Positions 7,673 to 59,859 of a DNA stretch of 64,000 nucleotides are shown piece after piece; the first letter of the stretch is position 1, and each line of letters opens with the position of its first letter. The stretch is from contig JAAYDF010000143.1 of assembly GCA_012729395.1 (NCBI GenBank), positions 7,971 through 71,970 on the forward strand, read 5' to 3'. The translations under genes and the position numbers were made by a program. The notes under the pieces were generated by a model. The model did no database searches. It was not told where the DNA came from and was given only the letters and a program-made list of their open reading frames with translations. This DNA comes from Phycisphaerae bacterium (GTDB lineage: Bacteria; Planctomycetota; Phycisphaerae; UBA1845; PWPN01).

Positions 7673-7864
7673 ATGTCGAAGTGGAGCAGGCTCAGACTGG
7701 CGGTGTTGGTGGCTGCATCGACACTGCCGACATTGGTTTGGCAGGCTGGTTGTGCGACGGTGAAGATCCCTCTCTTGCTCCCGGGTCTCCCGGGCTTCAC
7801 CTTGCCGGACGGCTGGTACCAGCGTGTCATTCAGTACGTTGTGATCGCCAACATCTTCGATTGA
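7673..7864 (+). CDS. Small secreted/lipoprotein-like protein P1 (63 aa)
   Basis: AAAGGAGG sits 6 nt upstream of the ATG. Sequence: MSKWSRLRLAVLVAASTLPTLVWQAGC-ATVKIPLLLPG..., giving a signal peptide plus lipobox-like Cys. Paralogous to P3. Confidence 0.6.
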   Translation: MSKWSRLRLAVLVAASTLPTLVWQAGCATVKIPLLLPGLPGFTLPDGWYQRVIQYVVIANIFD

Positions 7865-7993
7865 TGGGGTCGGCTGCAGCGTACCGCGGGTTTGCCGGCG
7901 GGAGCCTTGCGTAAGGCTGCCCGGCGGCGGGCTCGGGGATGGGTTTGCATGCCCCCTGAGTGGGGGCCATCAGTACTACGAGGAGACTGAAAA

Positions 7994-8119
7994 ATGTCGA
8001 AGAAGCTTTGGGTCAAATGGAGTTTGCTGTTCGCGACCTCGGCGGTTGCGGTCTTCGGGTTCGGCGCTTGTATCGCCGACTTCCTGATGATGAACTTCAT
8101 TCTGCGCGGAGTCAACTGA
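7994..8119 (+). CDS. Small secreted/lipoprotein-like protein P2 (41 aa; below the ORF-track cutoff)
   Basis: AGGAG lies 8 nt upstream of the ATG. Hand translation: MSKKLWVKWSLLFATSAVAVFGFGACIADFLMMNFILRGVN*. It has the same MSK start and architecture as P1. Confidence 0.45.
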   Translation: MSKKLWVKWSLLFATSAVAVFGFGACIADFLMMNFILRGVN

Positions 8120-8268
8120 GTAGTTGGAGACGGCTGGGCTTGTGCCGGCATGTTCCGGGACAGGCCTGTGGAACCGTGGGGTTCGGCCGCGTCCCGGGCT
8201 CGCCCGTGGTGAGGTTCGGTGGATCGAGGGTTGAACCTGATCATTCAAGACACAAACGGAGGCTCGCA

Positions 8269-8451
8269 ATGTTCAAAAGACTGACGACCTGGTCTTATTT
8301 GGCTGCCTTGTCGGCGGCCTGTGTATTCCAGCTCGGCGGGTGTGCCAGCGTCAAGATTCCGCTGCCGCTCCCGCTGTTCTCTTACAGCCTGGATCTGGAT
8401 GCGCTGCCGCGGATCATCATCGCCATCCTGAACGAGGAATTGTTCGGTTAA
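8269..8451 (+). CDS. Small secreted/lipoprotein-like protein P3 (60 aa)
   Basis: Internal ATG of ORF 7960..8451, preceded by ACGGAGG. Sequence: MFKRLTTWSYLAALSAACVFQLGGC-ASVKIPLPLPL...RIIIAILNEELFG. It shares the post-Cys VKIPL motif and tail with P1. Confidence 0.6.
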   Translation: MFKRLTTWSYLAALSAACVFQLGGCASVKIPLPLPLFSYSLDLDALPRIIIAILNEELFG

Positions 8452-8623
8452 TCACGGCGGCACGTGGCTCGGCAAGCCCGTGGGTGAAGCAGGGCTCGTT
8501 GGCTGTTGCGGCCGAGGGGCTCTTGCCAGCCCGGGGCCTGTCGGAGGGCGCCTGGCCCAGTATGCCCACGGCAGAAGCCGGACCAGGCTTGTGACAATTC
8601 TACCATCGATGGAGGTCATTGTT

Positions 8624-8803
8624 ATGAAACGGTTGATGAGAGTCCTTTTGATCGCCGCTCTCGCGGTGCCCATGTTTCAGTTGGGTTGCCTGCAGAAGAC
8701 CGATGTGGACGGTGGTTGGGACGTTCTGCGACCCAATCCCGGTGCGCTGATTTGCGCCCGTATCCCGGCCCAGATCAGGAACCTGATTCTGATCTGCCGG
8801 TAA
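8624..8803 (+). CDS. Small secreted/lipoprotein-like protein P4 (59 aa)
   Basis: Internal ATG of ORF 8480..8803 with GGAGG 8 nt upstream. Sequence: MKRLMRVLLIAALAVPMFQLGC-LQKTDVDGG...IRNLILICR. Confidence 0.55.
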   Translation: MKRLMRVLLIAALAVPMFQLGCLQKTDVDGGWDVLRPNPGALICARIPAQIRNLILICR

Positions 8804-8929
8804 GCTAAGACCGCCCAAGGGTGCGAGCCGTGAAGCGCCGCTTTGCCTGAACGGCAAGGGCGGCACGGCCGGCCAGCAGAAGTGCGCTGCTCAAGTTGAG
8901 CGGTGCTTCATGGGCGCTCCGATTCAAAG

Positions 8930-8972
8930 CAGCTTCCCCGCCCTGACTGAGGCGGGGAAGCTGTCTTCTTTT
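8930..8972 (+). terminator. Intrinsic terminator after P1-P4
   Basis: A 13-bp perfect stem, cagcttccccgcc / ggcggggaagctg, with an 8-nt loop, followed by tcttctttt. Confidence 0.6.
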
Positions 8973-9204
8973 GGCAGGGCACTTCCGCTGTCCACGCAAG
9001 CCTGGATCCAGCCCGAAAAGCCACCCGAGCAAGCCTCGCCCGCGCTCCCTGGAGCGGAACACGACTACGTCAGCAAGGCGGCTGTTGCCGCCTTGCATGG
9101 ACGCTTGGGGGACTCTATACTGCCGCAGGTTACGGGCGATGGGGCATGACGCCGGCGGTGCCGCCTTGGGGCGGACGGGTTGCGGCGGCCTTGGGAGGTA
9201 TGCC

Positions 9205-9513
9205 ATGATGAACAGGCGATGGACGCGCATTTGGGTCTGGCTGAGCATGTTTCTGGCGGGGGCGACGGTTTTTCAGACCGGCGGGTTCACCACTAGGAAT
9301 GGAGCGATCTCCGGCGGCTGCAGCGACTTCTGGATCAACGGCGCGGCGACATCGGTCGATTTCTGTTACCTCCTGGATTGCGAGAACGGTTTTTTCGGCG
9401 GACTGATTCAGCCCTGCGACCCCAATAATCCTTTGCTCGTCGATTGCACGCCGGCGGGTGGAGACACGGACGATGACGAGGAGCAGGACGAGGAGGAGGA
9501 GGAAGACCAGTAA
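9205..9513 (+). CDS. Small secreted Cys-rich protein P5 (102 aa) with poly-acidic C-terminus
   Basis: Internal ATG of ORF 8971..9513 with GGGAGG upstream. Sequence: MMNRRWTRIWVWLSMFLAGATVFQTGG signal, five Cys, and a DTDDDEEQDEEEEEDQ tail. Confidence 0.6.
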   Translation: MMNRRWTRIWVWLSMFLAGATVFQTGGFTTRNGAISGGCSDFWINGAATSVDFCYLLDCENGFFGGLIQPCDPNNPLLVDCTPAGGDTDDDEEQDEEEEEDQ

Positions 9514-9587
9514 GCAGGTTTTGGGTGGAAGTATGCGGGTTGTGGTGGTGTCCGTGAGGGCGGCGATCTGGCAAAAGGGTGTGAGCG

Positions 9588-9845
9588 ATGCGACGACAGC
9601 GGAAATGGTGGATGATGTGGGTCTTGTTGGCTGCTCCTCTTGTTGGAACGGCCTGGGCGGATCTGAGTTGCATCAGCAAAGCAGCCCGCAACATCAACCC
9701 GTGCGGCACGATTCTGAACTGTGACCCGATCGAGTACGATCTATTGATGCACGATTATCCCGACTGGAGTCTGGACCCGACCTGCACGATCCCGGGATTG
9801 TGCGGCGGGCAGTACCCCTATGGCTCGGGCGACGACGACGAGTGA
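9588..9845 (+). CDS. Small secreted Cys-rich protein P6 (85 aa) with acidic C-terminus
   Basis: MRRQRKWWMMWVLLAAPLVGTAWA signal, five Cys, and a GSGDDDE tail. The Cys spacing motifs align with P5 (LLDCEN/ILNCDP; VDCTPAGG/PTCTIPGLCGG). Confidence 0.6.
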   Translation: MRRQRKWWMMWVLLAAPLVGTAWADLSCISKAARNINPCGTILNCDPIEYDLLMHDYPDWSLDPTCTIPGLCGGQYPYGSGDDDE

Positions 9846-9923
9846 CGGGCTGGACTTCGTGAGGCGCGGCACCGGGGGCATGCTGTCTGTCGTCTCGTGA
9901 ACCGGTTGAGATGCAGATGATGA

Positions 9924-9962
9924 GAACGCCTGTGTCCGAATGGGTGCAGGCGTTTTCCTTTT
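9924..9962. terminator. Hairpin plus T-run between convergent P6 and the regulator gene
   Basis: gaacgcctg ... caggcgtt(t) stem followed by ttccttt. Confidence 0.4.
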
Positions 9963-10026
9963 CGCGGGCAGTGACTTGCCGCGCATTGGCCGAGAAGCGA
10001 TGCTCGCTTGCCAGTAACCATGTGCC

Positions 10027-11139
10027 TCAGTGAGCTTGAGAGGTCGAGCTGCGGACAATCAGCCAGGTCGGCAGGAGGTCAATCCGGGTGTCGACCTGTT
10101 TGCCGTTGATGAGCCGCGCGATGTGCTGGTAGGCCCGCATACCCATTTCTTCGAGCGGTTGACGCACCGTGGTCAAAGGCGGATTGAGCAGGGCCGCGGA
10201 CTTGGTGTCGTCGAAGCCCACGAGGGAGATGGCGTTGGGCACGGAAATGTGGAGTTCCCGAAGGAGAGTGAGGGCCTCAAGGGCAAGGTAGTAACCGCCG
10301 GCCACGATCGCGGTCGGGCGGTTCTTGCTCTGAAGGGTAGCCGTCAGCCGGCCCATGGCGGCACCGGCCGCCTTGGCCAGCTCGGCATTGTAGACCAAAT
10401 TCTCGGCGACGGGGAGCCCGTGTGCACGCATCTCCGCCATGTATCCCTCGTAACGGTGAAGGCAATTCGTCGAATCGAGAGGGCCGTTCAAGATCGCGAT
10501 TCTTCGGTGGCCCAGCTCAATGAGATGCCGTACCGCCGCTTGCATGCCCTGGAAGTTCTGCGAGTCCACGCAGTGAAGGGTGGTGTCTTCCAGAGAGGCA
10601 CCCAGGACCAGAACCGGTCTTCTGGTTGCTGCTTCCTCCAGCATGGCAAACTGATGGCGATCGGGGTGGAAGCAGAGCAGGCCGTCCGCGCTGAGTACGT
10701 CGAGATCGCGGAGCGAGTGGCATCGCTGGATGACCAGTTCTCCGACGGGTTCGATGAGTTCGGCGGCCTCTCGAACGCCGGCGATAAGCCGACCGTGATA
10801 GAAGTCGCCCAGTGGATTGCACGGATGCAGCACCAAGCCGACGCGGAACTGCGGCTTGGCAGCCACTTGTGCCTCAAAATCATTGCGGACGAATGTGCCC
10901 CGGCCTCGTTCGCGGCGGACCCACCCTTCCTGGACAAGACACTGAATGGCCTTGTGCGCGGTGATCAGACTGACGTTGATCTGGGCGCTGATCTCGCCGG
11001 TGTTGGGCAGCTTCGAGTTGGGAGGGAAGCGTCCCTTGCGGATGGCCTCGGCAAGGATGCTCTTAGCCTGGAGGTAGCGGGGAACCGCTGACTCGGTGTC
11101 GACCTTATCGAGATGGACGAGCGGGCATCTGCCGGCCAC
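10027..11139 (-). CDS. GntR-type wHTH / LacI-type sugar-binding-domain transcriptional regulator
   Basis: N-terminus PRYLQAKSILAEAIRKGRFPPNSKLPNTGEISAQINVSLITAHKAIQCLVQEGWVRRERGRGTFV (GntR HTH). The C-terminus has the periplasmic-binding-fold pattern (ISLVGFDD...L.PPLTTVRQP). The start is uncertain: a GTG at 11139 with GGGGAG upstream is preferred over the track start at 11259. Confidence 0.75.
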   Translation of the reverse strand: MAGRCPLVHLDKVDTESAVPRYLQAKSILAEAIRKGRFPPNSKLPNTGEISAQINVSLITAHKAIQCLVQEGWVRRERGRGTFVRNDFEAQVAAKPQFRVGLVLHPCNPLGDFYHGRLIAGVREAAELIEPVGELVIQRCHSLRDLDVLSADGLLCFHPDRHQFAMLEEAATRRPVLVLGASLEDTTLHCVDSQNFQGMQAAVRHLIELGHRRIAILNGPLDSTNCLHRYEGYMAEMRAHGLPVAENLVYNAELAKAAGAAMGRLTATLQSKNRPTAIVAGGYYLALEALTLLRELHISVPNAISLVGFDDTKSAALLNPPLTTVRQPLEEMGMRAYQHIARLINGKQVDTRIDLLPTWLIVRSSTSQAH

Positions 11140-11596
11140 GACAATTGTCTCCCCTACGATTTGGACGGCGGCACGGAGACCTCTCCCAGGGCACCCGGCT
11201 CGTTGCGGGTACACCGCTCGTAGCCCTTGGTCCGCATGCAGATCAACACCGCCAAGCACGCATTATATAACGATTCTCTCCGGCTCTCAAGGGGCGCTGT
11301 AGAAGAGCGGATTCAAACCTCCCACGGGCGGGTGCTTAAAGCGAGGTTGTAGCCTTGTCCGTAGGGCTGTCGGTTTCCGTTGTTCCTTTGGCGGCCTGCA
11401 AGGCGGGGGGCTCCCGACCAAACCGGAGGGAGCTTCTCTCGTACTGGCCCGCCCCGGGCCCGCCTTGAGGGGCTGGTGCGGCATCACTGCTTCCTGGGTT
11501 GTGGGGGAAGGCGAAGGGTGGCGGGGCGGGAGCGTGATGCGGCCAATGGCGGGTGAACGGTTCCGGGGCAAGCGGCGTGAATGCCGGGAGGTTGGC

Positions 11597-12664
11597 GTGA
11601 CGGACACACAGGAGCGCAACGGGCGGGATGACTGGGGCGTGGCGAAGACGGGGGGTGTGTTGGAGGAGGCGTTGGTGATCGAGTCTCACCGGCTGGAGGG
11701 GACGCGGGCGCCGGAGGTGGTGCTGATTGCCCCCTGGGGCGACGTGCACTCGGTGAACGGGAGATTCGTGGTTGACGAAGAGGCCGTCCGGTTGGTGGTG
11801 GCGGCGTACGAACGGCACGCCACGGACATCCCGATCGACTACGAGCATCAGAGTCTGGGTGGGGTGTACGCCTCCCCGACGGGTCAGGCTCCGGCGGCGG
11901 GTTGGATTCGAGCCTTGCGTGCGGTATCGCCGGAGGATGCGGCGGCGGGCGAGGCGGGTCTGTTGGCCGAGGTGGCGTGGACGGCAGCGGCCCAGGCGAA
12001 GCTGTCGGCCGGTGAGTACCGGTACCTCTCGCCGGTGGTTCTGGTGCGCAAAACCGACCGCCGGGTGGTGGGATTGCACTCGGCGGCTCTGACCAACAAG
12101 CCGGCCATCGTGGGCATGAGACCCATCGTCAACCGGGTTGAGCTGGAGAGAGGGATCGCGACGGTGGAAGGGGACGCGGTGGTGGACACGGGTGTGCCCG
12201 ATGGCTGTGTGGTCGGGGGTTTGGCGGCCGGCATCGAGGTTTTGCGGCGACGACTGAGGCTGGACCGGGGCAGTGACCCGGTGGAGGTGTTGTTGGCGGC
12301 GGATCGACGGTTGGGGGTGCTGATGACCGAGGCTGCCGAGCGTGAGGCTTCGGCGAAAGTTGCGGCGGCCATGCAGGCCGGGCAACTCGCGCCGGCCCAG
12401 CGGGAGTGGGCGGTTCGCTTGGCGTTGAGCGACCCCGTCGCGTTCACGGAGTGGGCGGCGTCGGCGCCCGCGGTGGTCATGATCGGGCGCACGCAGCCTC
12501 CGAGCGGCGATGCGGCCCGGCAAGGTCGGGATCGGGCGGCGGTGATCGCCTCGGCCCGGGCTTCCTTTTCCGCCGAGCCGGATCTCGCGGCGCTGACCAG
12601 TGAGTCAGCGTGGGTGAATGACGCCCTGCGCGAGGCGGGGCTGGGGCCGGACAGCGAGAAATGA
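11597..12664 (+). CDS. Mu-like prophage protein I family (head maturation protease/scaffold)
   Basis: PIDYEHQS, AGWIRAL, YRYLSPVV and LTNKPAIVGM match my recollection of the Mu gpI family (PF10123). The Ala-rich helical C-terminal half looks scaffold-like. The start is uncertain: the GTG at 11597 has GGGAGG 5 nt upstream, while the track ORF begins at 11465. Confidence 0.7.
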   Translation: MTDTQERNGRDDWGVAKTGGVLEEALVIESHRLEGTRAPEVVLIAPWGDVHSVNGRFVVDEEAVRLVVAAYERHATDIPIDYEHQSLGGVYASPTGQAPAAGWIRALRAVSPEDAAAGEAGLLAEVAWTAAAQAKLSAGEYRYLSPVVLVRKTDRRVVGLHSAALTNKPAIVGMRPIVNRVELERGIATVEGDAVVDTGVPDGCVVGGLAAGIEVLRRRLRLDRGSDPVEVLLAADRRLGVLMTEAAEREASAKVAAAMQAGQLAPAQREWAVRLALSDPVAFTEWAASAPAVVMIGRTQPPSGDAARQGRDRAAVIASARASFSAEPDLAALTSESAWVNDALREAGLGPDSEK

Positions 12665-12818
12665 GAAGCATGCTTCTGTGGTGGGTGTCTGTGGCCGTGC
12701 TGGTGGCCGGGCTCAGGGACGCACACAAGCAAGACTCTCTCGGTTCTCCATTGTCGATTCAGGATTTGGATTTGAGCGGCGTCGGGTTCACGGGTCTTAG
12801 GCAAGAAGAGGTGCATGG

Positions 12819-13577
12819 ATGGCTTTGACGAACAATCGGCAGGTGGATCGGTATGTGGATCAGGAGATGCGTACGTTGCCCGTGGCGATGGATGCGCACA
12901 TCTACAAAGGAGCGTTGGTCGGGCTTTCAGGCGGGTATGCTCGGCCGTTGGAGGCGGGCGATATCTTCGCTGGGGTCGCTTACGAGGAGATGGACAACAC
13001 GGCCGGTCAGCCCGGCGATCTGGTGGTGCGGGTCTTCACGCAGGGTGATTTCGAGCACGAGCTGGCGGGCGCGGATCGGGTTCACAATCTCGGGCCGATC
13101 TTCGCCTCGGACGATCAGACGCTGACGGTCAACTCGTCGGGTCACAGTTTTGTGGGGCATCAGATCGACGTGGTCGGAGATGACCGGATTGTAGTGCGGA
13201 TTCAGGTTGCGCCGATGCCGTTGGCGGGAGGGACGATGGCTGGTCCGCTGGTTTCGGCGGGGCTCAAGCACCAAGTGGTGACGAAGGTGAGTGCCACCAA
13301 TGTGGCGATCGGGGTTGCGGATTTGGGTGGTGTGATCGTGGTGACGGGCACGACGGCGTCGAGCTTGAACTTGCCGTCGGCCGCGGAGGCTGGGCCGGGG
13401 GCATGGTGCACTTTCATCAAGACGGGGCTCAGCGGGTTGCTGACGGTGACGCCGGCCGGCTCGGACAGTATCGACAGCGCGGGGAGCCACGCACTGATGG
13501 GCGCGGCTCATGACACGGTCACGATTGTGTGTGATGGTATGGGCTGGCATGTGGTGGCCTTGAAAATCGCCGCTTGA
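12819..13577 (+). CDS. Phage head-associated protein, DUF2190/decoration-like N-terminal half
   Basis: IYKGALVGL..GYARPL..GDIFAGVAYEE.D...G......V.TQGDF resembles the DUF2190-type phage head protein pattern. It sits between the protease/scaffold and major capsid genes. AAGAGG RBS. Confidence 0.5.
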   Translation: MALTNNRQVDRYVDQEMRTLPVAMDAHIYKGALVGLSGGYARPLEAGDIFAGVAYEEMDNTAGQPGDLVVRVFTQGDFEHELAGADRVHNLGPIFASDDQTLTVNSSGHSFVGHQIDVVGDDRIVVRIQVAPMPLAGGTMAGPLVSAGLKHQVVTKVSATNVAIGVADLGGVIVVTGTTASSLNLPSAAEAGPGAWCTFIKTGLSGLLTVTPAGSDSIDSAGSHALMGAAHDTVTIVCDGMGWHVVALKIAA

Positions 13578-13712
13578 CCGTCCGCAAGAGGATCTGTGAC
13601 CGTATGTGTGCGTTGATTGAGACATATGCCATTGGGCCACGGCTGGAGCCGACAGCGATTGACGCCCAGTCGGGTGCCGGCGGCTTTTCAGAGAAGAGGG
13701 TGAGGTGTATCG

Positions 13713-14630
13713 ATGGCGGTGATGAATACGGGGCTGTTGACCAAGGGGCTTCGCAGCGAGTTCTTCGAGCGGTATGGCGCAACGACGACCTACTACCAGG
13801 ACCTGGCGACGCGGATTCCATCCACGTCGGATTCGGAGACGTACCAATGGCTTGGTACGGTGCCGCGGATGCGGGAATGGGGCACGGGGCGGCTGGCCCG
13901 CGGCCTGAGGACTGAGAGGTACTCGCTGGAAAACCTGAAATACGAGGCGACGATCGAGGTCGACCGCGACGAGATCGCCGACGACCAGACGGGCCAGATT
14001 CGGATCCGCGTGGGCGAATTGGCCCAGCGAGCGGCGACGCACAAGGACTACCTGCTCGGCCAGTTGATGGTCAACGGCGGGGCGGACGCTTGCCAGAGCT
14101 ACGATGGGGCGGCGTTTTTCAGCGACGGGCACGTGTCGGGCGGATCTGGTGTGCAGGACAACGATCTGACCTTCGCGGCGGCGGCGGAGAGCGATGAGCC
14201 GACCACGGAGGAGTTCAAGGGGTCGCTCAAGCAGGCGATGGCCCGGATGCTGTCGTTCAAAGACGACCAAGGCGAACCGTTGGCGCTGAACATGACCGGC
14301 ATGGTGTGTCTGGTGCCGCCGTCGATGCTCTTCACGGCGATGGAGGCGGTGAACGCGACGGTGATCAACCAGACGTCGAACGTCCTGCAGGGAGCGGCTC
14401 GGGTGGTGGCTTTGCCGTGGCTGACCTCGCCGGCGGTGTGGTACCTGCTCAAGACGGATGGGGTGGTGCGGCCGTTCATTTTCCAGGACCGAGAGCCGAT
14501 CGAGTTTGGATCGCTGACGGAGGCGAGCGAGGAGGGATTCAAGCGAGAGAAGCTGCTGTTCGGGGTTCGGGCTCGATATCGGATGGCATACGGGTACTGG
14601 CAATTCGCTGTGCGGACGACGTTCGTGTGA
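13713..14630 (+). CDS. Mu-like major head subunit gpT family (HK97-fold capsid protein)
   Basis: 305 aa. YQWLGTVPRMREWGTGR, YDGAAFFSDGH, VRPFIFQDREPIE and LLFGVRARYRMAYGYWQFAV align with remembered Mu gpT motifs (YGWLG..P.L.EW.G.R, YDGQNFF..EH, VKPFIFQER, FLFG......GYGFWQMAV). Confidence 0.8.
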   Translation: MAVMNTGLLTKGLRSEFFERYGATTTYYQDLATRIPSTSDSETYQWLGTVPRMREWGTGRLARGLRTERYSLENLKYEATIEVDRDEIADDQTGQIRIRVGELAQRAATHKDYLLGQLMVNGGADACQSYDGAAFFSDGHVSGGSGVQDNDLTFAAAAESDEPTTEEFKGSLKQAMARMLSFKDDQGEPLALNMTGMVCLVPPSMLFTAMEAVNATVINQTSNVLQGAARVVALPWLTSPAVWYLLKTDGVVRPFIFQDREPIEFGSLTEASEEGFKREKLLFGVRARYRMAYGYWQFAVRTTFV

Positions 14631-14749
14631 GCGAGATGAGCGGTATGGAGGGGGGCTGCAGGCCGGCCCGGAGCTTTGGTTCCGGGCCGGCCAACTGTTG
14701 CGCTTCTCAATCAGCAAAGGGTGTCACTCGCTGGACGCCTGGCTCCTGC

Positions 14750-14890
14750 GGCAAAAATGGCGAATGCCCAAGGCCCAATGACCAATCAATGACCAAGCCC
14801 GAAGCCAGAACGCCAACCGCGGGCGGGGACGTTGGTTGTGGGTCGTTTGGACTTCATGGGTCATTGGGGCTTCGCCATGGTCATTTCGCC
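14750..14890. repeat. Hairpin-forming MITE-like repeat, family 1, copy A
   Basis: ggcgaatgcccaaggcccaatgaccaatcaatgaccaagcccgaa ... ggtcattggggcttcgccatggtcatttcgcc. The halves are imperfect inverted repeats. Near-identical copies lie at 19531-19672 and, inverted, at 59575-59715. Confidence 0.7.
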
Positions 14891-15196
14891 CGCGGATGGC
14901 GAATTATGCTCATCAGCAAAGAAGAGCCTGGCTTCGGTCTGGACCATGCGTGTGGCAGCGCGAGTACACTTGCGGTTGGCCGCGCTGCTCGACCGTGGCC
15001 CTGGGGGTTATGGGACGCGCGTACCTGTTCGCCGGCCAACCGCAACGCGGTGCGAGATGACACCACGGGCTTTGGTCGGGGGCGTGCTCGTTGGCGGGGT
15101 GAGGCAGGGACGGTATAATAGCCACACCTTTCCAAGCCAGTCAGGGCAGGAGGCCTCAGTGTTGGGGGGATCCACCCGATCGGGAAGGGAGGTCCG

Positions 15197-16270
15197 ATGC
15201 GTCGCGTGGCGGTCATCAATCAGAAGGGCGGAGTGGGGAAAACCACTACGGCGGTGAACGTGGCGGCGGCCCTGGCGCGGGCCGGGCATCGCGTGTTGGT
15301 GATTGACCTCGACCCGCAGGCCCATTTGAGCTTGCACCTCGGGCTGGATCCGGCCGCCGGTCGCCCGGGAACGTACGAACTCCTGACCGGCTCAACTTCC
15401 ATTGCCAAGGCCCGCGTGAAGGTGGCGAATAACCTGTGGGCGGTGGGGGCAAGTATTGACCTGGCGGCGGCGGAGGTGGAGTTGGTCAGCGTGGTCGGGC
15501 GGGAGGTCATCTTGCGCGACCTGCTGGACCACCACACCGGCCGGGAAACCGACGCGCAACCTCCTCGGTACGATTACGTGATTGTGGATTGCCCACCGTC
15601 CCTGGGTGTGCTGACGCTCAATGGTCTGTGTGCGACCCAGGAGGTGATTATTCCGCTGCAACCGCACTTCTTGGCGCTGCAGGGTGTGGGCAAGCTGCTG
15701 GAGACGGTGCTGTTGGTCAGTCGGCGAATCAACCCGTCGTTGCACGTCGAGGGCGTGGTGATTTGCATGCACGACGCGGGGACGAAGTTGGCTGCGGAGG
15801 TGGTCGGGGATGTGCGCTCGTTCATGGAGGCCGCTCGCGGGCAGAATGTGCCGTGGTCGTCGGCTCGATTATTCGAGACGATGATCCGCAGGAATATCAA
15901 GCTGGCGGAAGCTCCCAGCTATGGGAAGAGTATCTTCGACTATGCCGCTGACAGCAACGGAGCGAAGGATTACGAGCGGTTGGCCATGGAGATTCACCGC
16001 GGGGTTGTCGCGGCCGCTCCAGAGGTGTCACTGGAGGGTGGCAATGGTGACGCGGCCGCCCGGCAAGCCTTGGGGAGCGGCGAAGAGCCGACCGATCGTG
16101 TGCCTTTGCCGCCGGACATGGCCGGCCCGCTGGTCGAGCCGGTAGCCGCGGATCCGCTCGCGGAGCATTTGCGGACCAGTTCGGTTGCAGCCATGCCCGA
16201 TGCCATCGGCGGGGCCATGTCGCAGCGCGACGATTCTTCGCAGCCCGCCCCCATCCACGACCAGAGATAG
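15197..16270 (+). CDS. parA: ParA/Soj-family ATPase with a roughly 90-aa acidic/Pro-rich C-terminal extension; no parB adjacent
   Basis: MRRVAVINQKGGVGKTTTAVN (deviant Walker A with signature Lys), VLVIDLDPQ and YDYVIVDCPPSLG. Confidence 0.85.
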   Translation: MRRVAVINQKGGVGKTTTAVNVAAALARAGHRVLVIDLDPQAHLSLHLGLDPAAGRPGTYELLTGSTSIAKARVKVANNLWAVGASIDLAAAEVELVSVVGREVILRDLLDHHTGRETDAQPPRYDYVIVDCPPSLGVLTLNGLCATQEVIIPLQPHFLALQGVGKLLETVLLVSRRINPSLHVEGVVICMHDAGTKLAAEVVGDVRSFMEAARGQNVPWSSARLFETMIRRNIKLAEAPSYGKSIFDYAADSNGAKDYERLAMEIHRGVVAAAPEVSLEGGNGDAAARQALGSGEEPTDRVPLPPDMAGPLVEPVAADPLAEHLRTSSVAAMPDAIGGAMSQRDDSSQPAPIHDQR

Positions 16271-19385: not shown

Positions 19386-19740
19386 GGAACCACAGATGCA
19401 CACAGATGAACGCTGATGAGTACGCACCTCGTCGTGGGCGAGTGCTGATGATCGTTGGGACATGCCAGGGTCTCCGGTCAATGCTTTCCGTGTTATTCGG
19501 GCGTAACTCACTGCCTGCCCGACTCGTGGGGCACAATGGCGAATGCCCAAGCCCCAATGACCAATCAATGACCAAGCCCGAAACCAGAACTCGGTTGTGG
19601 GTAGAGGACATTCGTCATTCGGATTTCATTGGTCATCCGTGCTTTGCCATTGTTCATTTCGCCTACGGCTGGCGCGTTACGCTCACATCCTTCCCGCCTC
19701 TTTGCTCCATCTGTATTTATCTGTGTGCATCTGTGGTTCC
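19386..19740. mobile_element. Composite MITE-like element: perfect 22-bp terminal inverted repeats enclosing a family-1 repeat (copy B)
   Basis: ggaaccacagatgcacacagat (19386-19407) is the exact reverse complement of atctgtgtgcatctgtggttcc (19719-19740). The interior carries the ggcgaatgcccaagccccaatgaccaatcaatgacc... hairpin. There is no transposase. Confidence 0.6.
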
Positions 19741-55860: not shown

Positions 55861-56307
55861 TGCCTTCTTCCTCGACGCAAGCCGCGGACCCAGATGGGAT
55901 GATCCGCTTGGCCGCCGGTGAAAGCGGACTTTGCGGATTCCCGCGATCCGCCAGCCCCTTTCGCCGACGCTTATCCGATTCTAGCCACGCCCGGAAATGT
56001 TTTCCATCTATCGGCTTGTCGCCTCGCGATACGCCGAAACAGCGCCTGCCACCGCCTTCGTCCCTGCCGCTTGGTCCGAATACACGAACCGCATTCAGGG
56101 TCCGAGAACTTCACGCGTTCGCTCGCCGGAACACGGCGCGGACGAGGGGTATTGTCCCGATGCCCGCAACCTGCGGATCGTCCCAACCTTCGCGGTTAAG
56201 CGAGGATATGGCGAAACCGATACCACCCACAGCCGTGTGGGTACGCGCGAGGCGCTCTGTGGGGGATCTGTTTTTTGGGCTGTATATTCACCAGGCCGGC
56301 ACGAAGC

Positions 56308-58530
56308 ATGGGTGTGGTGTTCGTCGGTATGCTTGCCGTCGCGGCCCATACCTCGGCCATCCGGATTCTCGCGGCCGAGCGCCCGGCGGGCGATGAGTCC
56401 GCCCACATCCTGGTTACCTGTGACGAGCACGTCGCCTCTCGTACCACCGGCCGAGTGACCCTGCACGATGCCCTGGCCCGGGCGGCCGCCGACCCTCGCG
56501 ATAACCTCATCACCTTCGATGCCGAGACCTGCCGCGGGGATCGTGCCACTGTTAAGCTCTCAGAGCCCTTGGCGATGAATAGGGCTGCGGGTGGACACGA
56601 TCGCATCGACGGCCGCGTCGGTACCGAGCACGTGACCCTCGACCTGTCGTCCTGCCCGGATGCCGGCATCGTCGTCAGCTCGCAGGCTCACCTGACGCTC
56701 ACCGGGCTCGCGGTCGTGGGGGGCACGCAACGCACGATCCTGGCAAAGGACCACGCACGGCTGCTGCTTGAAGAGGTGACGCTGCACGGCAGCCAGGGGC
56801 CGGGCCTCGCCCTGTTCGCAAACGCCGCCGCGACGCTTCATCGCTGCCTTATCACCGCCAACGCGACCCACGGCGTCGAGCTCCACGACAACACCGCCGC
56901 CACGCTGGCCGACAGCCATCTCGCGGGTAACGGCCAGTCCGGCCTGGCCGCCTTTCATGCCTCGACGGCCCAACTCGACGGTTGCACCTTGCGCGGTAAC
57001 GCCCAGTGGAACCTCGTGTTGACCCACGGCGGACGAGTCAGCCTGACCGCCTGCCGCCTCGAGGGCGGCGGCTTTGCCAGCGCCGATGCCAGCCAAGCCG
57101 CGTTCCTGGCCATGGCCGACTGCACCGTGACCGCGGGGCAGCGGTTCGGGCTGTTCCTGACCGGGCAGGCCCGCGCCGAACTGGTGGGCACCCAGCTTCG
57201 CCAGCACGCCGGCCGCGGCATCGAACTCCAGGACCAAGCCATCGCCCGGCTCCAACGCTCACGCATCGAGGCCAGCGGCGACTACGGCGCGATTCTCTTC
57301 GGCCGATCACAACTGACCGCCGACCAGACCGCGTTTACCTACAACGGTGCCCATGGCGCCAGTCTCCGCGATCAGAGCGCAGGCGAGTTCCAGGCTTGTG
57401 TGTTTGCCGGCAACCGCTACAGCGGCATCGGCTGCCTCGACGCGGGGGCCGGCGGACGCATGTCCGCCCGCGAGTGCCTCTTTCATCAGAACGGTATGAG
57501 GCCCATCTACCGCGGGCCGTTGCACCTCGATCCCCTCGTGCCCACCCCGGTGCGCATCCAGGATACCCGAGTGCACTGCTTGGCCGCGCCCGATGCCCAG
57601 ATCGACCTGTACCTGGATCGGGTCGGCGAGGCGGCCCGGTTCCTGCGGACGATCAGCGCGGATCGCCACGGGCGCTTCATTGTGGATTGCCGCGAGGTGC
57701 CGGACGGGTGGGTGATGACCGCCGCCGCGACGGTGCGTGGATCGACCAGCGAGATCAACGTGATCGCCGGTTCGCCCGCGCCGGCCTTGCTGGCGGCTCT
57801 GCTGGGCCAGACCGGGCCGCTCTCCGACGACGGCGGCCCCGTCCGCCTCGACGCCCGACCACGCCGCTGGCCCGCGGGGACGCACCTGCTGTTCCATGTG
57901 CCCACCGCCCCTGACACCGCGGTCAATCGCTACGCCGACTTCTTCATTCCGCAGGTGAAGGAGTGGACGGGAGGTGGCTTGTCCGCGGAGGCCCAAACCA
58001 CGGCCATCTCCGCCGCGGCCGCCGACACCGTGGTCATCCCCGTCCGCTATCTGCCCGCCGAGGCACCTCCGCTTCAAGGTCGCGGCGGCGTGACCTTCAT
58101 GAAGTGGACCGCGGAGGGGCGATTCGTTCGTCCGATGGAGATTGTGCTGGCCGTCGCCCTGGACCCGGCCGAGACCTGCCCTCGCGTCTTCGCTCATGAG
58201 GTCGGCCACACGCTGGGGCTCTGCCATGTCCGCGCCGGTCTGCTCTCACGCATGCAGGGCTCCGTCCCGCCGGACGACCCGGCCATGGTCAACGACTTCT
58301 CCCCCATGTTCACCTTCTACGACGTGCAGGCCCTGCACATCCTGCACAGCCGTCACGCTCGCCCGGGCGCCACCCTGGCCGACCTCGCCGATCGAGGGCT
58401 CGTCCCGGTTCTGCCGTCGCTTCAACTGGCCGGAACGTCCACCTCGCCGCCGCAACCAACCTTCAGCCCGCCCGCGCCACACCTGCAGCGACCTGATCGC
58501 CCGCATTCGTCAGTCAACGTCCGCCCGTAA
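56308..58530 (+). CDS. Secreted right-handed beta-helix repeat protein with C-terminal metzincin-type Zn-protease motif
   Basis: Repeated about 23-aa PbH1-like units (L.....G.GL......A.L..C.L..N...G). HEVGHTLGLCH (HExxHxxGxxH) lies near the C-terminus. Signal-like MGVVFVGMLAVAAHTSA. Confidence 0.7.
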   Translation: MGVVFVGMLAVAAHTSAIRILAAERPAGDESAHILVTCDEHVASRTTGRVTLHDALARAAADPRDNLITFDAETCRGDRATVKLSEPLAMNRAAGGHDRIDGRVGTEHVTLDLSSCPDAGIVVSSQAHLTLTGLAVVGGTQRTILAKDHARLLLEEVTLHGSQGPGLALFANAAATLHRCLITANATHGVELHDNTAATLADSHLAGNGQSGLAAFHASTAQLDGCTLRGNAQWNLVLTHGGRVSLTACRLEGGGFASADASQAAFLAMADCTVTAGQRFGLFLTGQARAELVGTQLRQHAGRGIELQDQAIARLQRSRIEASGDYGAILFGRSQLTADQTAFTYNGAHGASLRDQSAGEFQACVFAGNRYSGIGCLDAGAGGRMSARECLFHQNGMRPIYRGPLHLDPLVPTPVRIQDTRVHCLAAPDAQIDLYLDRVGEAARFLRTISADRHGRFIVDCREVPDGWVMTAAATVRGSTSEINVIAGSPAPALLAALLGQTGPLSDDGGPVRLDARPRRWPAGTHLLFHVPTAPDTAVNRYADFFIPQVKEWTGGGLSAEAQTTAISAAAADTVVIPVRYLPAEAPPLQGRGGVTFMKWTAEGRFVRPMEIVLAVALDPAETCPRVFAHEVGHTLGLCHVRAGLLSRMQGSVPPDDPAMVNDFSPMFTFYDVQALHILHSRHARPGATLADLADRGLVPVLPSLQLAGTSTSPPQPTFSPPAPHLQRPDRPHSSVNVRP

Positions 58531-58710: not shown

Positions 58711-59574
58711 ACGACGGCGCGTGCCAGCCCCGCCAGCCGCCACGGCTCGGTGGATGCACCCGAATGGCGAGTGACTCTCTTCTGTGCGCTTTGACGGACC
58801 GGTGCCTTCCGGGCCACAATGAGAACCTCTGGGCAACCCCGATCTGGGATTTCAAATTTGCGATTTCAGATTGGAGTCGCGGATTGTGCCGAACCGCGAA
58901 GGGGGTTCTTCAGAGATCCCAAGGTGGATACAGAGCCGTTGCAGGCGATCGGTCATCAGGACGCTCGATATGCTCTTCAGGAACCGCTCAATTCGACATT
59001 GGGGCAAACGTCCGCTGGCCACAATGAAAGGCTGCGTGTTCGTCCTCCTGTTCGCCCTGGCCTTCGGCGGCATGTTCTTCTGGCTCATTGTCTCAGCGGC
59101 CCAATGAAGAGGCCTGTCGCAATCGCCGGGTGGCTCACCTTCTGTGGAGGTGGGGAAGTGATTGCGCCCTGCGTGAAACGCTGCTCCCTTCGCCGCACTC
59201 GTCAGGCCGCCGCAATCGCCCCCCAAAAAAGTCCAAACGACTTGGGCCACCCGCCTCGCATATGCGGTCACGCGGACTGACTCACTCGTCCAGATCCCAG
59301 GAGTCTGAGTCGTTCGCCGCCCGCTGATCCTCCTCCTCCGGCTCCACGCTGCCGCCCGATGGCCCCCAGCCCGCTCTAGCGGGGTTCTCGATGTATGGGT
59401 TTACCCGGTAGGTGTACCGTCGGGATTCCCACAGCTCAAGCCGCCCATCGAGAATCCCGGTAAACCGGGATCATCCCTCCGCTGGGCACGCCGTACTCAC
59501 CCGACGTGAACGACGGGCCTAGCGCGGGACACGCCGGCCCCAAGGTCGCCTCGTCGTGGCTGCAACTCGCGATT

Positions 59575-59715
59575 CGCCGACGAAATGCCCCATGGCGAAG
59601 CACCAATGACCAATCAAGCCCGAATGACGAGTGCGCTCGACCACGGCCGAAGTTTCGGGTTTCGAACTTCGTCATTGATTGGCCATTGGGCCTTGGGCAT
59701 TCGCCATTTTGCCCC
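59575..59715. repeat. Family-1 MITE-like repeat, copy C (inverted orientation)
   Basis: ggcgaagcaccaatgaccaatcaagcccgaatgacg...cgtcattgattggccattgggccttgggcattcgcc. Confidence 0.65.
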
Positions 59716-59859
59716 AGGAGCCGAGCGGATGGCAAGTCACCCAAAAATCTACAGAACCTGGGCCACCCAACGAAGAAACCACATCGGCGTCTATCCGCGT
59801 TCACGCGTCGCGGCGCAGCAGGGCGGAGCCGGATCGGTGGTTCCAGACTCTTCGGTCGG

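Follow-up and report, generated by a model that had tools for sequence, protein, structure and literature searches.

The subject of this study is a set of three adjacent phage-type genes in a 64,000-nucleotide stretch of DNA from a Phycisphaerae bacterium (GenBank assembly GCA_012729395.1, contig JAAYDF010000143.1, positions 7,971 to 71,970 of the forward strand); the whole of that stretch is called the window below. The three genes, which encode a gpI-like head maturation protease with scaffold, a capsid cement protein, and a major capsid protein of the Mu gpT type, are probably the head operon of an old, vertically inherited, multi-locus particle system of the Phycisphaerae, domesticated in the manner of a gene transfer agent (GTA). 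The evidence for this is the distribution and synteny of the genes in related species, the presence of a separate terminase-portal pair in the same organism, and the selection acting on all five genes. A more specific proposal is made tentatively, as one that may well prove wrong: that a GTA-like system of the Phycisphaerae was domesticated independently from a Mu-type ancestor and that in several lineages, that of the window among them, it has been reduced to a tail-less, cement-stabilised, DNA-packaging capsid encoded at two unlinked loci. If so, the particle would be a DNA container owned by the cell, with a route of release and uptake unlike tail-mediated injection.

Head genes in the window

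A preliminary description of the window reported three intact, co-directional Mu-type head genes, and both the open reading frames (ORFs) and their profile matches bear this out (coordinates are given in Table 1). The comparison it suggested with PF10123 and PF10124 gave matches above the curated cut-offs for both families: the gpI-like protein matches PF10123 (Mu-like_Pro) with an E-value of 7.5e-51 (174 bits, cut-off 25.2), and the gpT-like protein matches PF10124 (Mu-like_gpT) at 2.9e-56 (191 bits, cut-off 20.1). In PHROGs, the same proteins match phrog_328, “head maturation protease,” at 6e-48 and phrog_371, “major head protein,” at 1.7e-61, respectively. Mu-like_gpT and Phage_capsid_4 are the only Pfam families matched by the shell protein. 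Mu-type major capsid proteins have the HK97 fold.

The product of the middle gene is identified from profile matches as a capsid cement or decoration protein. Its N-terminal part (residues 1-128) matches phrog_1731, “virion structural protein,” with an E-value of 4e-19, and the C-terminal part matches phrog_15797; the window copy has no Pfam match of its own and scores below the threshold for PF09956, formerly DUF2190 and now Phage_cement_2. That family is matched by 16 of 40 cement orthologues, with a best E-value of 2.2e-8, and PF22758 by eight of the 40, so the earlier label “DUF2190-like” was right at the level of the family. Orthologues in relatives have either a form of ~250 amino acids or one of ~135 amino acids with the N-terminal domain only, and a profile search of PDB sequences with the cement protein gave no match. 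The GC content of the three head genes, overall and at third codon positions (GC3, 0.76-0.85), is host-like, and the exact gpT sequence is present on 21 contigs from many samples. A called ORF of 55 amino acids at 12661-12828 was set aside; it is not called in sister strains.

Conservation and gene order in relatives

Relatives of gpT were sought in GTDB with one genome per species and are present in 199 species representatives. The census of loci described here covers the best 80 of these 199 species loci (gpT identity 66-80%), nearly all of which come from metagenome-assembled genomes (MAGs) of Phycisphaerae or Planctomycetota. At E ≤ 1e-10, a protein search with gpT gave 1293 relatives; members of the top 120 protein clusters have identities of 71-98% and lengths of 302-320 amino acids, and the clusters that are named are likewise from Phycisphaerae or Planctomycetota MAGs.

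The ORFs neighbouring gpT in the 80 loci were clustered, and representatives were scanned against Pfam and PHROGs. The full gene order is large terminase (Terminase_6N/6C), Mu portal (PF06074, 6.5e-83), gpI, cement, gpT, the Gp36 adaptor (PF07030), a Gp37/tail-terminator-like protein, and a variable short-tail module, of which there are at least two types. For example, the cluster at locus L272 has 15 genes in 13.3 kb and lies between a helix-turn-helix regulator and a Ser/Thr kinase on one side and GatC and ribosomal protein L28 on the other. In the 80 loci, no neighbours other than phage structural genes are conserved, and genes for an integrase, a transposase, a repressor, replication, or lysis were found in none of the loci looked at. 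The order gpI-cement-gpT is kept in every one of these loci with enough upstream DNA, and Gp36 adjoins gpT in 75 of 78. The portal is adjacent in ~51 of 66 loci, is absent within 5-8 kb in 14, and is 6.6 kb upstream of gpI in L052 (219-1490 versus 8295-10549). In this last locus, from a digester MAG, five unrelated host-like genes stand between the portal and gpI, which looks like an intermediate stage of the detachment of terminase and portal.

Tail modules are much less constant than the head. Among 58 loci with more than 5 kb of downstream sequence, 21 have a module of type A, 11 have one of type B, and 26 have none that was recognised; the last group includes four loci first scored as “type C,” a class that was discarded when its marker, C21, turned out to be a QueD/PTPS-like host enzyme. 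Type A modules consist of a hub protein of ~710 amino acids (C9) with β-helix spike-like proteins (C20 and C41), and type B modules of small unknown proteins and a lectin-like protein. C9 (12434-14557 in L085; homologues P0261-P0369) has no Pfam or PHROG match, and its AlphaFold model (pLDDT 90) matches the baseplate hubs gp27, VgrG, and Mu gp44. Genes for a tube, a sheath, or a tape measure were not recognised beside C9, so the complete particles would have an unusual tail architecture.

On a neighbour-joining tree of gpT, the portal-detached loci, with the exception of L084, form one clade that includes the window, and the loci with type B tails also form a clade. Such coherence of the rearranged states on the tree indicates that they are inherited, which argues for vertical descent. 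Detachment of terminase and portal would accordingly be dated, from the tree, to one old event in the clade of the window. The divergence of the head genes resembles that of neighbouring host genes and, together with the gpT tree and the spread over species, argues for vertical inheritance of the system across the Phycisphaerae.

A terminase-portal pair at a second locus

The preliminary description had treated the three genes as a free-standing minimal kit for a closed shell, had suggested searching the rest of the genome for portal and terminase genes, and had named such genes as evidence against its proposal. The search found both. Locus P0174 encodes a large terminase (TerL) of 471 amino acids and a Mu portal of 448 amino acids, alone among host genes: a GHL6 glycosidase gene lies upstream, a gene for an unknown protein of 406 amino acids and then a His_biosynth gene lie downstream, and no other gene of the cluster occurs within 10 kb of the pair. 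The notion of a minimal shell kit is contradicted by this pair, which is intact and belongs to the same organism, and also by the relatives, most of which carry the three genes inside a cluster that runs from terminase to tail.

Several lines of evidence place the pair in the genome of the window organism as a second chromosomal locus. P0174 and the head contig occur in the same assemblies at similar coverage (8.59x versus 8.18x in ERZ778039 and 4.67x versus 3.66x in ERZ764778), and P0174 is also present in JGI 3300026252. The GenBank accessions for gpT (NLX21558), ParA (NLX21559), and the portal (NLX23384) are of one numeric series, which points to a single MAG submission. In a sister MAG, GCA_053529215.1, whose gpT is 97% identical, the head block is on JAIVOA010000027 and the terminase-portal pair is on JAIVOA010000059. 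The second lineage in which gpT is directly followed by ParA (L019) has a matching orphan pair (P0168) on a contig of ~372 kb; the sizes of 375,078 and 375,076 bp suggest, as an unconfirmed match, that this pair and the head module of L019 may be on one contig. Both loci of the window organism, like the complete clusters of its relatives, contain structural and packaging genes only and are flanked by host genes. A cluster of structural genes without genes for replication, integration, lysogeny, or lysis has the anatomy of a GTA-like domesticated element.

A motif of the form CTGGTGCGGC-N40-GGGGCGGGAGCGT is present upstream of gpI and, with identical spacing, where the unlinked terminase gene of this organism begins (8479-8488 and 8529-8541 in L092). 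In the sister MAG, both loci retain its first half, CTGGTGCGGC. The motif may be a shared regulatory site, a candidate for which the statistics come from two loci.

Selection and gene integrity

All five genes are under purifying selection. Between the window lineage and the sister lineage, at synonymous divergence (dS) of 0.06-0.23, the ratio of nonsynonymous to synonymous substitution rates (dN/dS) is 0.06-0.09 for gpT, 0.19-0.22 for cement, 0.17-0.37 for gpI, 0.16 for the portal, and 0.30 for TerL, compared with 0.04-0.14 for neighbouring host genes. The sister lineage has no Gp36 within 480 bp 3' of gpT, so this constraint operated in the split, adaptor-less state. Residues conserved in each family are also retained: 149 of 154 columns in gpT, 74 of 75 in gpI, 138 of 146 in the portal, and 161 of 164 in TerL, including the Walker A GKS and LDE motifs.

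Across species, the reading frame is uninterrupted in 78 of 80 gpT genes, 73 of 74 gpI genes, and 51 of 52 portal genes. The two interrupted gpT genes have in-frame stops (L015, 9992-10900; L026, 9989-10903), and that of L015, which takes the place of the Trp conserved in YQWLG, is in a gene with outlying dN/dS in deep comparisons; the stops reflect either occasional pseudogenisation or sequencing error. The preliminary description had asked whether the block was syntenic and under purifying selection in related genomes, and had counted strain-specificity, relaxed selection, or pseudogenisation against domestication. The block is kept in the same order in related species, with mostly intact genes and dN/dS well below 1. 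Its view that the block is domesticated rather than decaying holds across many species, and the decaying prophage that it gave as the mundane alternative does not agree with a conserved, syntenic, and constrained block.

ParA and the lost adaptor and tail

In one subclade, the cluster is bordered on its right by a chromosomal gene for a ParA/MinD-type ATPase, which follows gpT in the window and lies outside the phage-derived system. In L012/L182 and in L268, the nearest tail-bearing relative of the window (gpT 84% identical), orthologues that are 76-79% identical immediately follow C13, the last tail gene; with a tail module between gpT and ParA in these three relatives, ParA is merely the right-hand chromosomal neighbour. 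It directly follows gpT in the window and in one of the 80 species loci (L019), and it is absent from 76 of the 80. From this comparison, the arrangement in the window is the result of a deletion of ~9 kb from Gp36 to C13, with a miniature inverted-repeat transposable element (MITE)-like repeat now marking the scar, and identity matrices suggest that the deletions in L019 and in the window were independent. The C-terminal ~80 residues of ParA do not align to orthologues (alignments stop at residue 274-287), the gene has a promoter-like site of its own, and no ParB domain was found among the window ORFs scanned.

Viral relatives and literature

Among the 2.9 million viral contigs of IMG/VR, the best gpT identities are 61, 55, and 54%, with all others at most ~42%, and identity to gpT of GenBank phages is at most 35%. 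Such low values suggest that the gpT family does not belong to a phage in ordinary circulation. On the three best viral contigs there are homologues of portal, gpI, cement, gpT, Gp36, hub, and C8 that diverge further, and these contigs are likely true phage cousins; the closest (L103/L274) was read for ~2.5 kb more, which ends short of the early region.

In the literature searched, there was no description of this system and none linking Phycisphaerae with Mu-like elements, and the only paper to name both Phycisphaerae and gene transfer agents was an unrelated study of a desalination plant. Hexagonal tail-less particles are reported to be released without lysis by a cultured Phycisphaerae isolate, ZRK32 (PMC10945688). 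Any link between those particles and the system described here is speculative.

Proposed function and alternative explanations

By homology to the morphogenesis of phage heads, the products of the two loci would work together as follows. The gpI scaffold and gpT would co-assemble on a portal ring encoded at the second locus, the gpI protease would then remove the scaffold, the terminase would pump DNA inward through the portal, and the expanded shell would be locked by the cement protein. In the history read from the relatives, the terminase-portal pair was split from the head genes to a separate chromosomal locus in the clade of the window, and the segment with adaptor and tail between gpT and ParA was also lost in the window lineage. 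For this organism, the predicted product is a head that is stabilised by cement and able to package DNA, and for which neither an adaptor nor a tail is recognised. A tail may come from an unrecognised locus or from another phage, or may be dispensable.

A number of observations weigh against a GTA-like system. No adaptor or tail gene was found near either the head locus or the terminase-portal locus. The hub C9 of the nearest relatives has 109 matches in a collection of 5.8 billion proteins, none of which has this organism's sample or source pattern, and a metagenome scan for Gp36 gave no match attributable to it, which is weak evidence from a single peptide pattern and the best 80 matches. 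With no adaptor, hub, or tail found, a complete, delivery-competent particle cannot be reconstructed for this genome. No locus has a recognised small terminase. The two loci are assigned to one genome from MAG binning, coverage, and the accession series rather than from a closed genome. TerL and gpI have a higher dN/dS (~0.3) than host neighbours, and their constraint may be somewhat relaxed; in deep comparisons, where gpT has dN/dS of 0.09-0.22 and ParA of 0.12-0.14, dS is saturated. Finally, close relatives may be scarce in viral collections partly because planctomycete phages are poorly sampled. The Gp36 matches from the same digester metagenomes (L194 and L195) were rejected as those of a different Phycisphaerales organism (of the L018 type), in which they stand beside its own gpT.

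If both loci were functionless leftovers of a decaying Mu-like prophage, then the loss of the adaptor and tail segment in the window lineage, the MITE in its scar, the repeated loss or movement of tail modules in the clade, the stop codons in two of 80 gpT genes, and the somewhat raised dN/dS of TerL and gpI would all fit. This is nevertheless unlikely. The five intact genes keep 94-99% of family-conserved columns, their low dN/dS was measured entirely between lineages that were already split and tail-less, and gpT is under as much constraint as host neighbours. The portal-detached arrangement is common to a whole clade of species and gpI-cement-gpT is kept across the best 80 loci; neutral leftovers would not remain intact at dS above 1.

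The genes that are kept (TerL, portal, protease/scaffold, cement, and capsid) are a tail-less head set, and across species a constant head module stands beside tail modules that vary or are missing. These features would also fit a chromosomally fixed, capsid-forming parasite of incoming phages, whose own heads capture the tails, and perhaps the adaptors, of another phage. By analogy with capsid-forming phage-inducible chromosomal islands (PICIs), such a parasite would provide defence, transduction, or both. It is improbable: genes for an integrase, for replication, or for sensing a helper are absent, the two loci are separate and immobile, the Gp36 adaptor on which tails would dock is also not found here, and no helper phage is known.

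The preliminary description favoured an encapsulin-like nanocompartment derived from a domesticated capsid and positioned by ParA. In its favour, gpT belongs to the Mu-type capsid family, the three genes are constrained with no tail found in this genome, and ParA is adjacent both here and in L019. The explanation is now very improbable, as the same organism has a portal and a TerL of intact catalytic appearance, both under selection, which points to packaging of DNA rather than protein cargo, and capsid, protease/scaffold, and cement together are the genes of phage-type head morphogenesis. In 75 of 78 relatives the gene 3' of gpT is a head-tail adaptor, and no cargo-like gene was linked to the head genes among the neighbours of the 80 loci, where no search for targeting peptides was made. 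Positioning by ParA fares no better, with neither conserved linkage nor a partner gene of the ParA/McdA type seen in those loci: ParA follows the tail in three, is absent from nearly all others, and has a C-terminal tail that is not conserved.

That the genes are part of an active Mu-like prophage with the remainder outside the window would agree with the existence of portal and terminase elsewhere in the genome; it is highly improbable. Both loci have host genes for 10 kb on both sides and no transposase, repressor, lysis, or tail genes. In relatives, the complete cluster amounts to just ~13 kb of structural genes, and two independent MAGs each have the loci on separate contigs.

Other features of the window

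Table 1. Positions of the head genes and other features in the window
Feature	Position	Strand	Remarks
Small-ORF array	7673-9845	+	six or seven tandem ORFs (41-102 aa)
CTGGTGCGGC and GGGGCGGGAGCGT of spaced motif	11473-11482 and 11523-11535		upstream of gpI
gpI-like head maturation protease and scaffold	11537-12664	+	375 aa by most gene callers; alternative starts 11465 (longest ORF), 11546, 11615 (other callers)
Capsid cement/decoration protein	12819-13577	+	252 aa; N-terminal cement domain (~residues 1-130) and variable C-terminal domain
Mu gpT-type major capsid protein	13713-14630	+	305 aa
GC-rich hairpin at the end of the three-gene operon	14661-14692	+	no U-tract
MITE-like repeat (~190 bp)	14719-14912		in gpT-ParA spacer, where relatives carry the Gp36-to-C13 module
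Promoter-like site of ParA	15091-15119		
ParA/MinD-type ATPase	15197-16270	+	AAA_31, 7.6e-50; chromosomal right flank
Further MITE-like copy	19499-19685		
β-helix protein	56275-58530	+	751 aa; right-handed β-helix (PF13229)
Further MITE-like copy	59564-59722		

The surroundings of the head genes are as the preliminary description gave them, with a divergent regulator (of GntR/LacI type) upstream of gpI and a MITE and ParA-type ATPase downstream. Its statement that nothing else in the 64 kb is phage-like was also confirmed: tblastn found no homologue of terminase, portal, Gp36, Gp37, or the conserved tail genes of relatives in the rest of the window, and Pfam scans of 30 other large ORFs gave host functions only, including a type II secretion system operon, a histidine kinase, M16 peptidases, phosphoglucomutase, and diaminopimelate epimerase. 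The protein of 751 amino acids with a right-handed β-helix has no tblastn similarity to the spikes C20 and C41 of relatives' tail modules and is probably an unrelated secreted enzyme. The small ORFs of the tandem array have N-termini resembling signal peptides or lipoboxes, and the final two are rich in Cys and end in poly-acidic tails; the array has no Pfam matches and is conserved in the sister MAG (L269).

The RNA fold of 14631-14720 has an energy of -50.7 kcal/mol (z = -4.0). The sister lineage retains the hairpin within it, both arms having lost one base at matching positions (a compensatory indel). This hairpin was not reported by a scan for consensus terminators.

The two further MITE-like copies in the window are ~75% identical, and another is upstream of the GntR gene in the sister MAG (6091-6237 in L269). 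The repeat has internal inverted arms of the TGACCAATGACC/GGTCATTGGG type. Several assemblies of the window species break or diverge at the copy 3' of gpT. For example, contig L007 (JGI Ga0123326_1008988) is 99.8% identical to the window as far as the MITE (~4294, corresponding to ~14902 in the window), beyond which it has a gene for AICARFT/IMP cyclohydrolase rather than ParA, either through an assembly chimera or through a true rearrangement. Because it diverges inside the MITE and may be chimeric, this junction was discarded as evidence on ParA.

Comparison with known systems

To our knowledge, only a handful of independent domestications of phages into GTA-like particles are known, and none is from the Planctomycetota, in which routes of gene exchange are largely unknown. 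The family described here forms a natural series, from the full cluster, through a clade with detached terminase and portal, to lineages in which tails were swapped or lost repeatedly, with a head that stays constant and constrained throughout. It offers a means of asking which parts of a phage particle cells retain, and why. The series is also a warning that such loci are easily mistaken for prophage fragments or “orphan” capsid genes when a single window is considered.

Encapsulins also have an HK97-fold shell that is kept for the cell's own use; however, they are linked to cargo and lack portal, protease/scaffold, cement, and terminase, which is the reverse of the system here. Capsid-forming PICIs resemble it in having head and packaging genes without a tail, but they are contiguous mobile islands with genes for integrase, regulation, replication, and head-tail connectors, none of which is seen here; integrase, regulatory, and replication genes are absent within 10 kb of either locus and from the complete clusters of relatives. 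Mu-like phages (Mu, D3112/B3-like phages, Sinorhizobium phi3LM21, and Mushuvirus) share Portal_Mu, Mu-like_Pro, Mu-like_gpT, Gp36, and Gp37 with the Phycisphaerae cluster, and the order of the head genes in Mu genomes is the same. Capsid identity to these phages is at most 35%, however, and the genes of the Phycisphaerae are fixed in the chromosome, without transposase, repressor, lysis, or contractile tail genes, and in the window organism are split over loci.

There are also parallels with GTAs. The GTA of Rhodobacter capsulatus (RcGTA), in the Alphaproteobacteria, differs in its independent origin and in its head, which is of the HK97/g5 lineage, while that of the Phycisphaerae is Mu-type (gpI, gpT, and Mu portal) with cement; in the latter system no tape measure or small terminase was recognised, and no adaptor or tail was found in the window organism. 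The two are alike in having a cluster of ~13-15 kb for head, packaging, and tail without functions for replication or lysogeny, in vertical inheritance and purifying selection across a large clade, and in the distribution of genes over several loci in some genomes. The GTA of Bartonella (BaGTA) and other multi-locus domesticated phage systems, although BaGTA is of different phage ancestry, are like the Phycisphaerae system proposed here in that phage-derived genes are supplied in trans from separate loci and are conserved in a clade of hosts.

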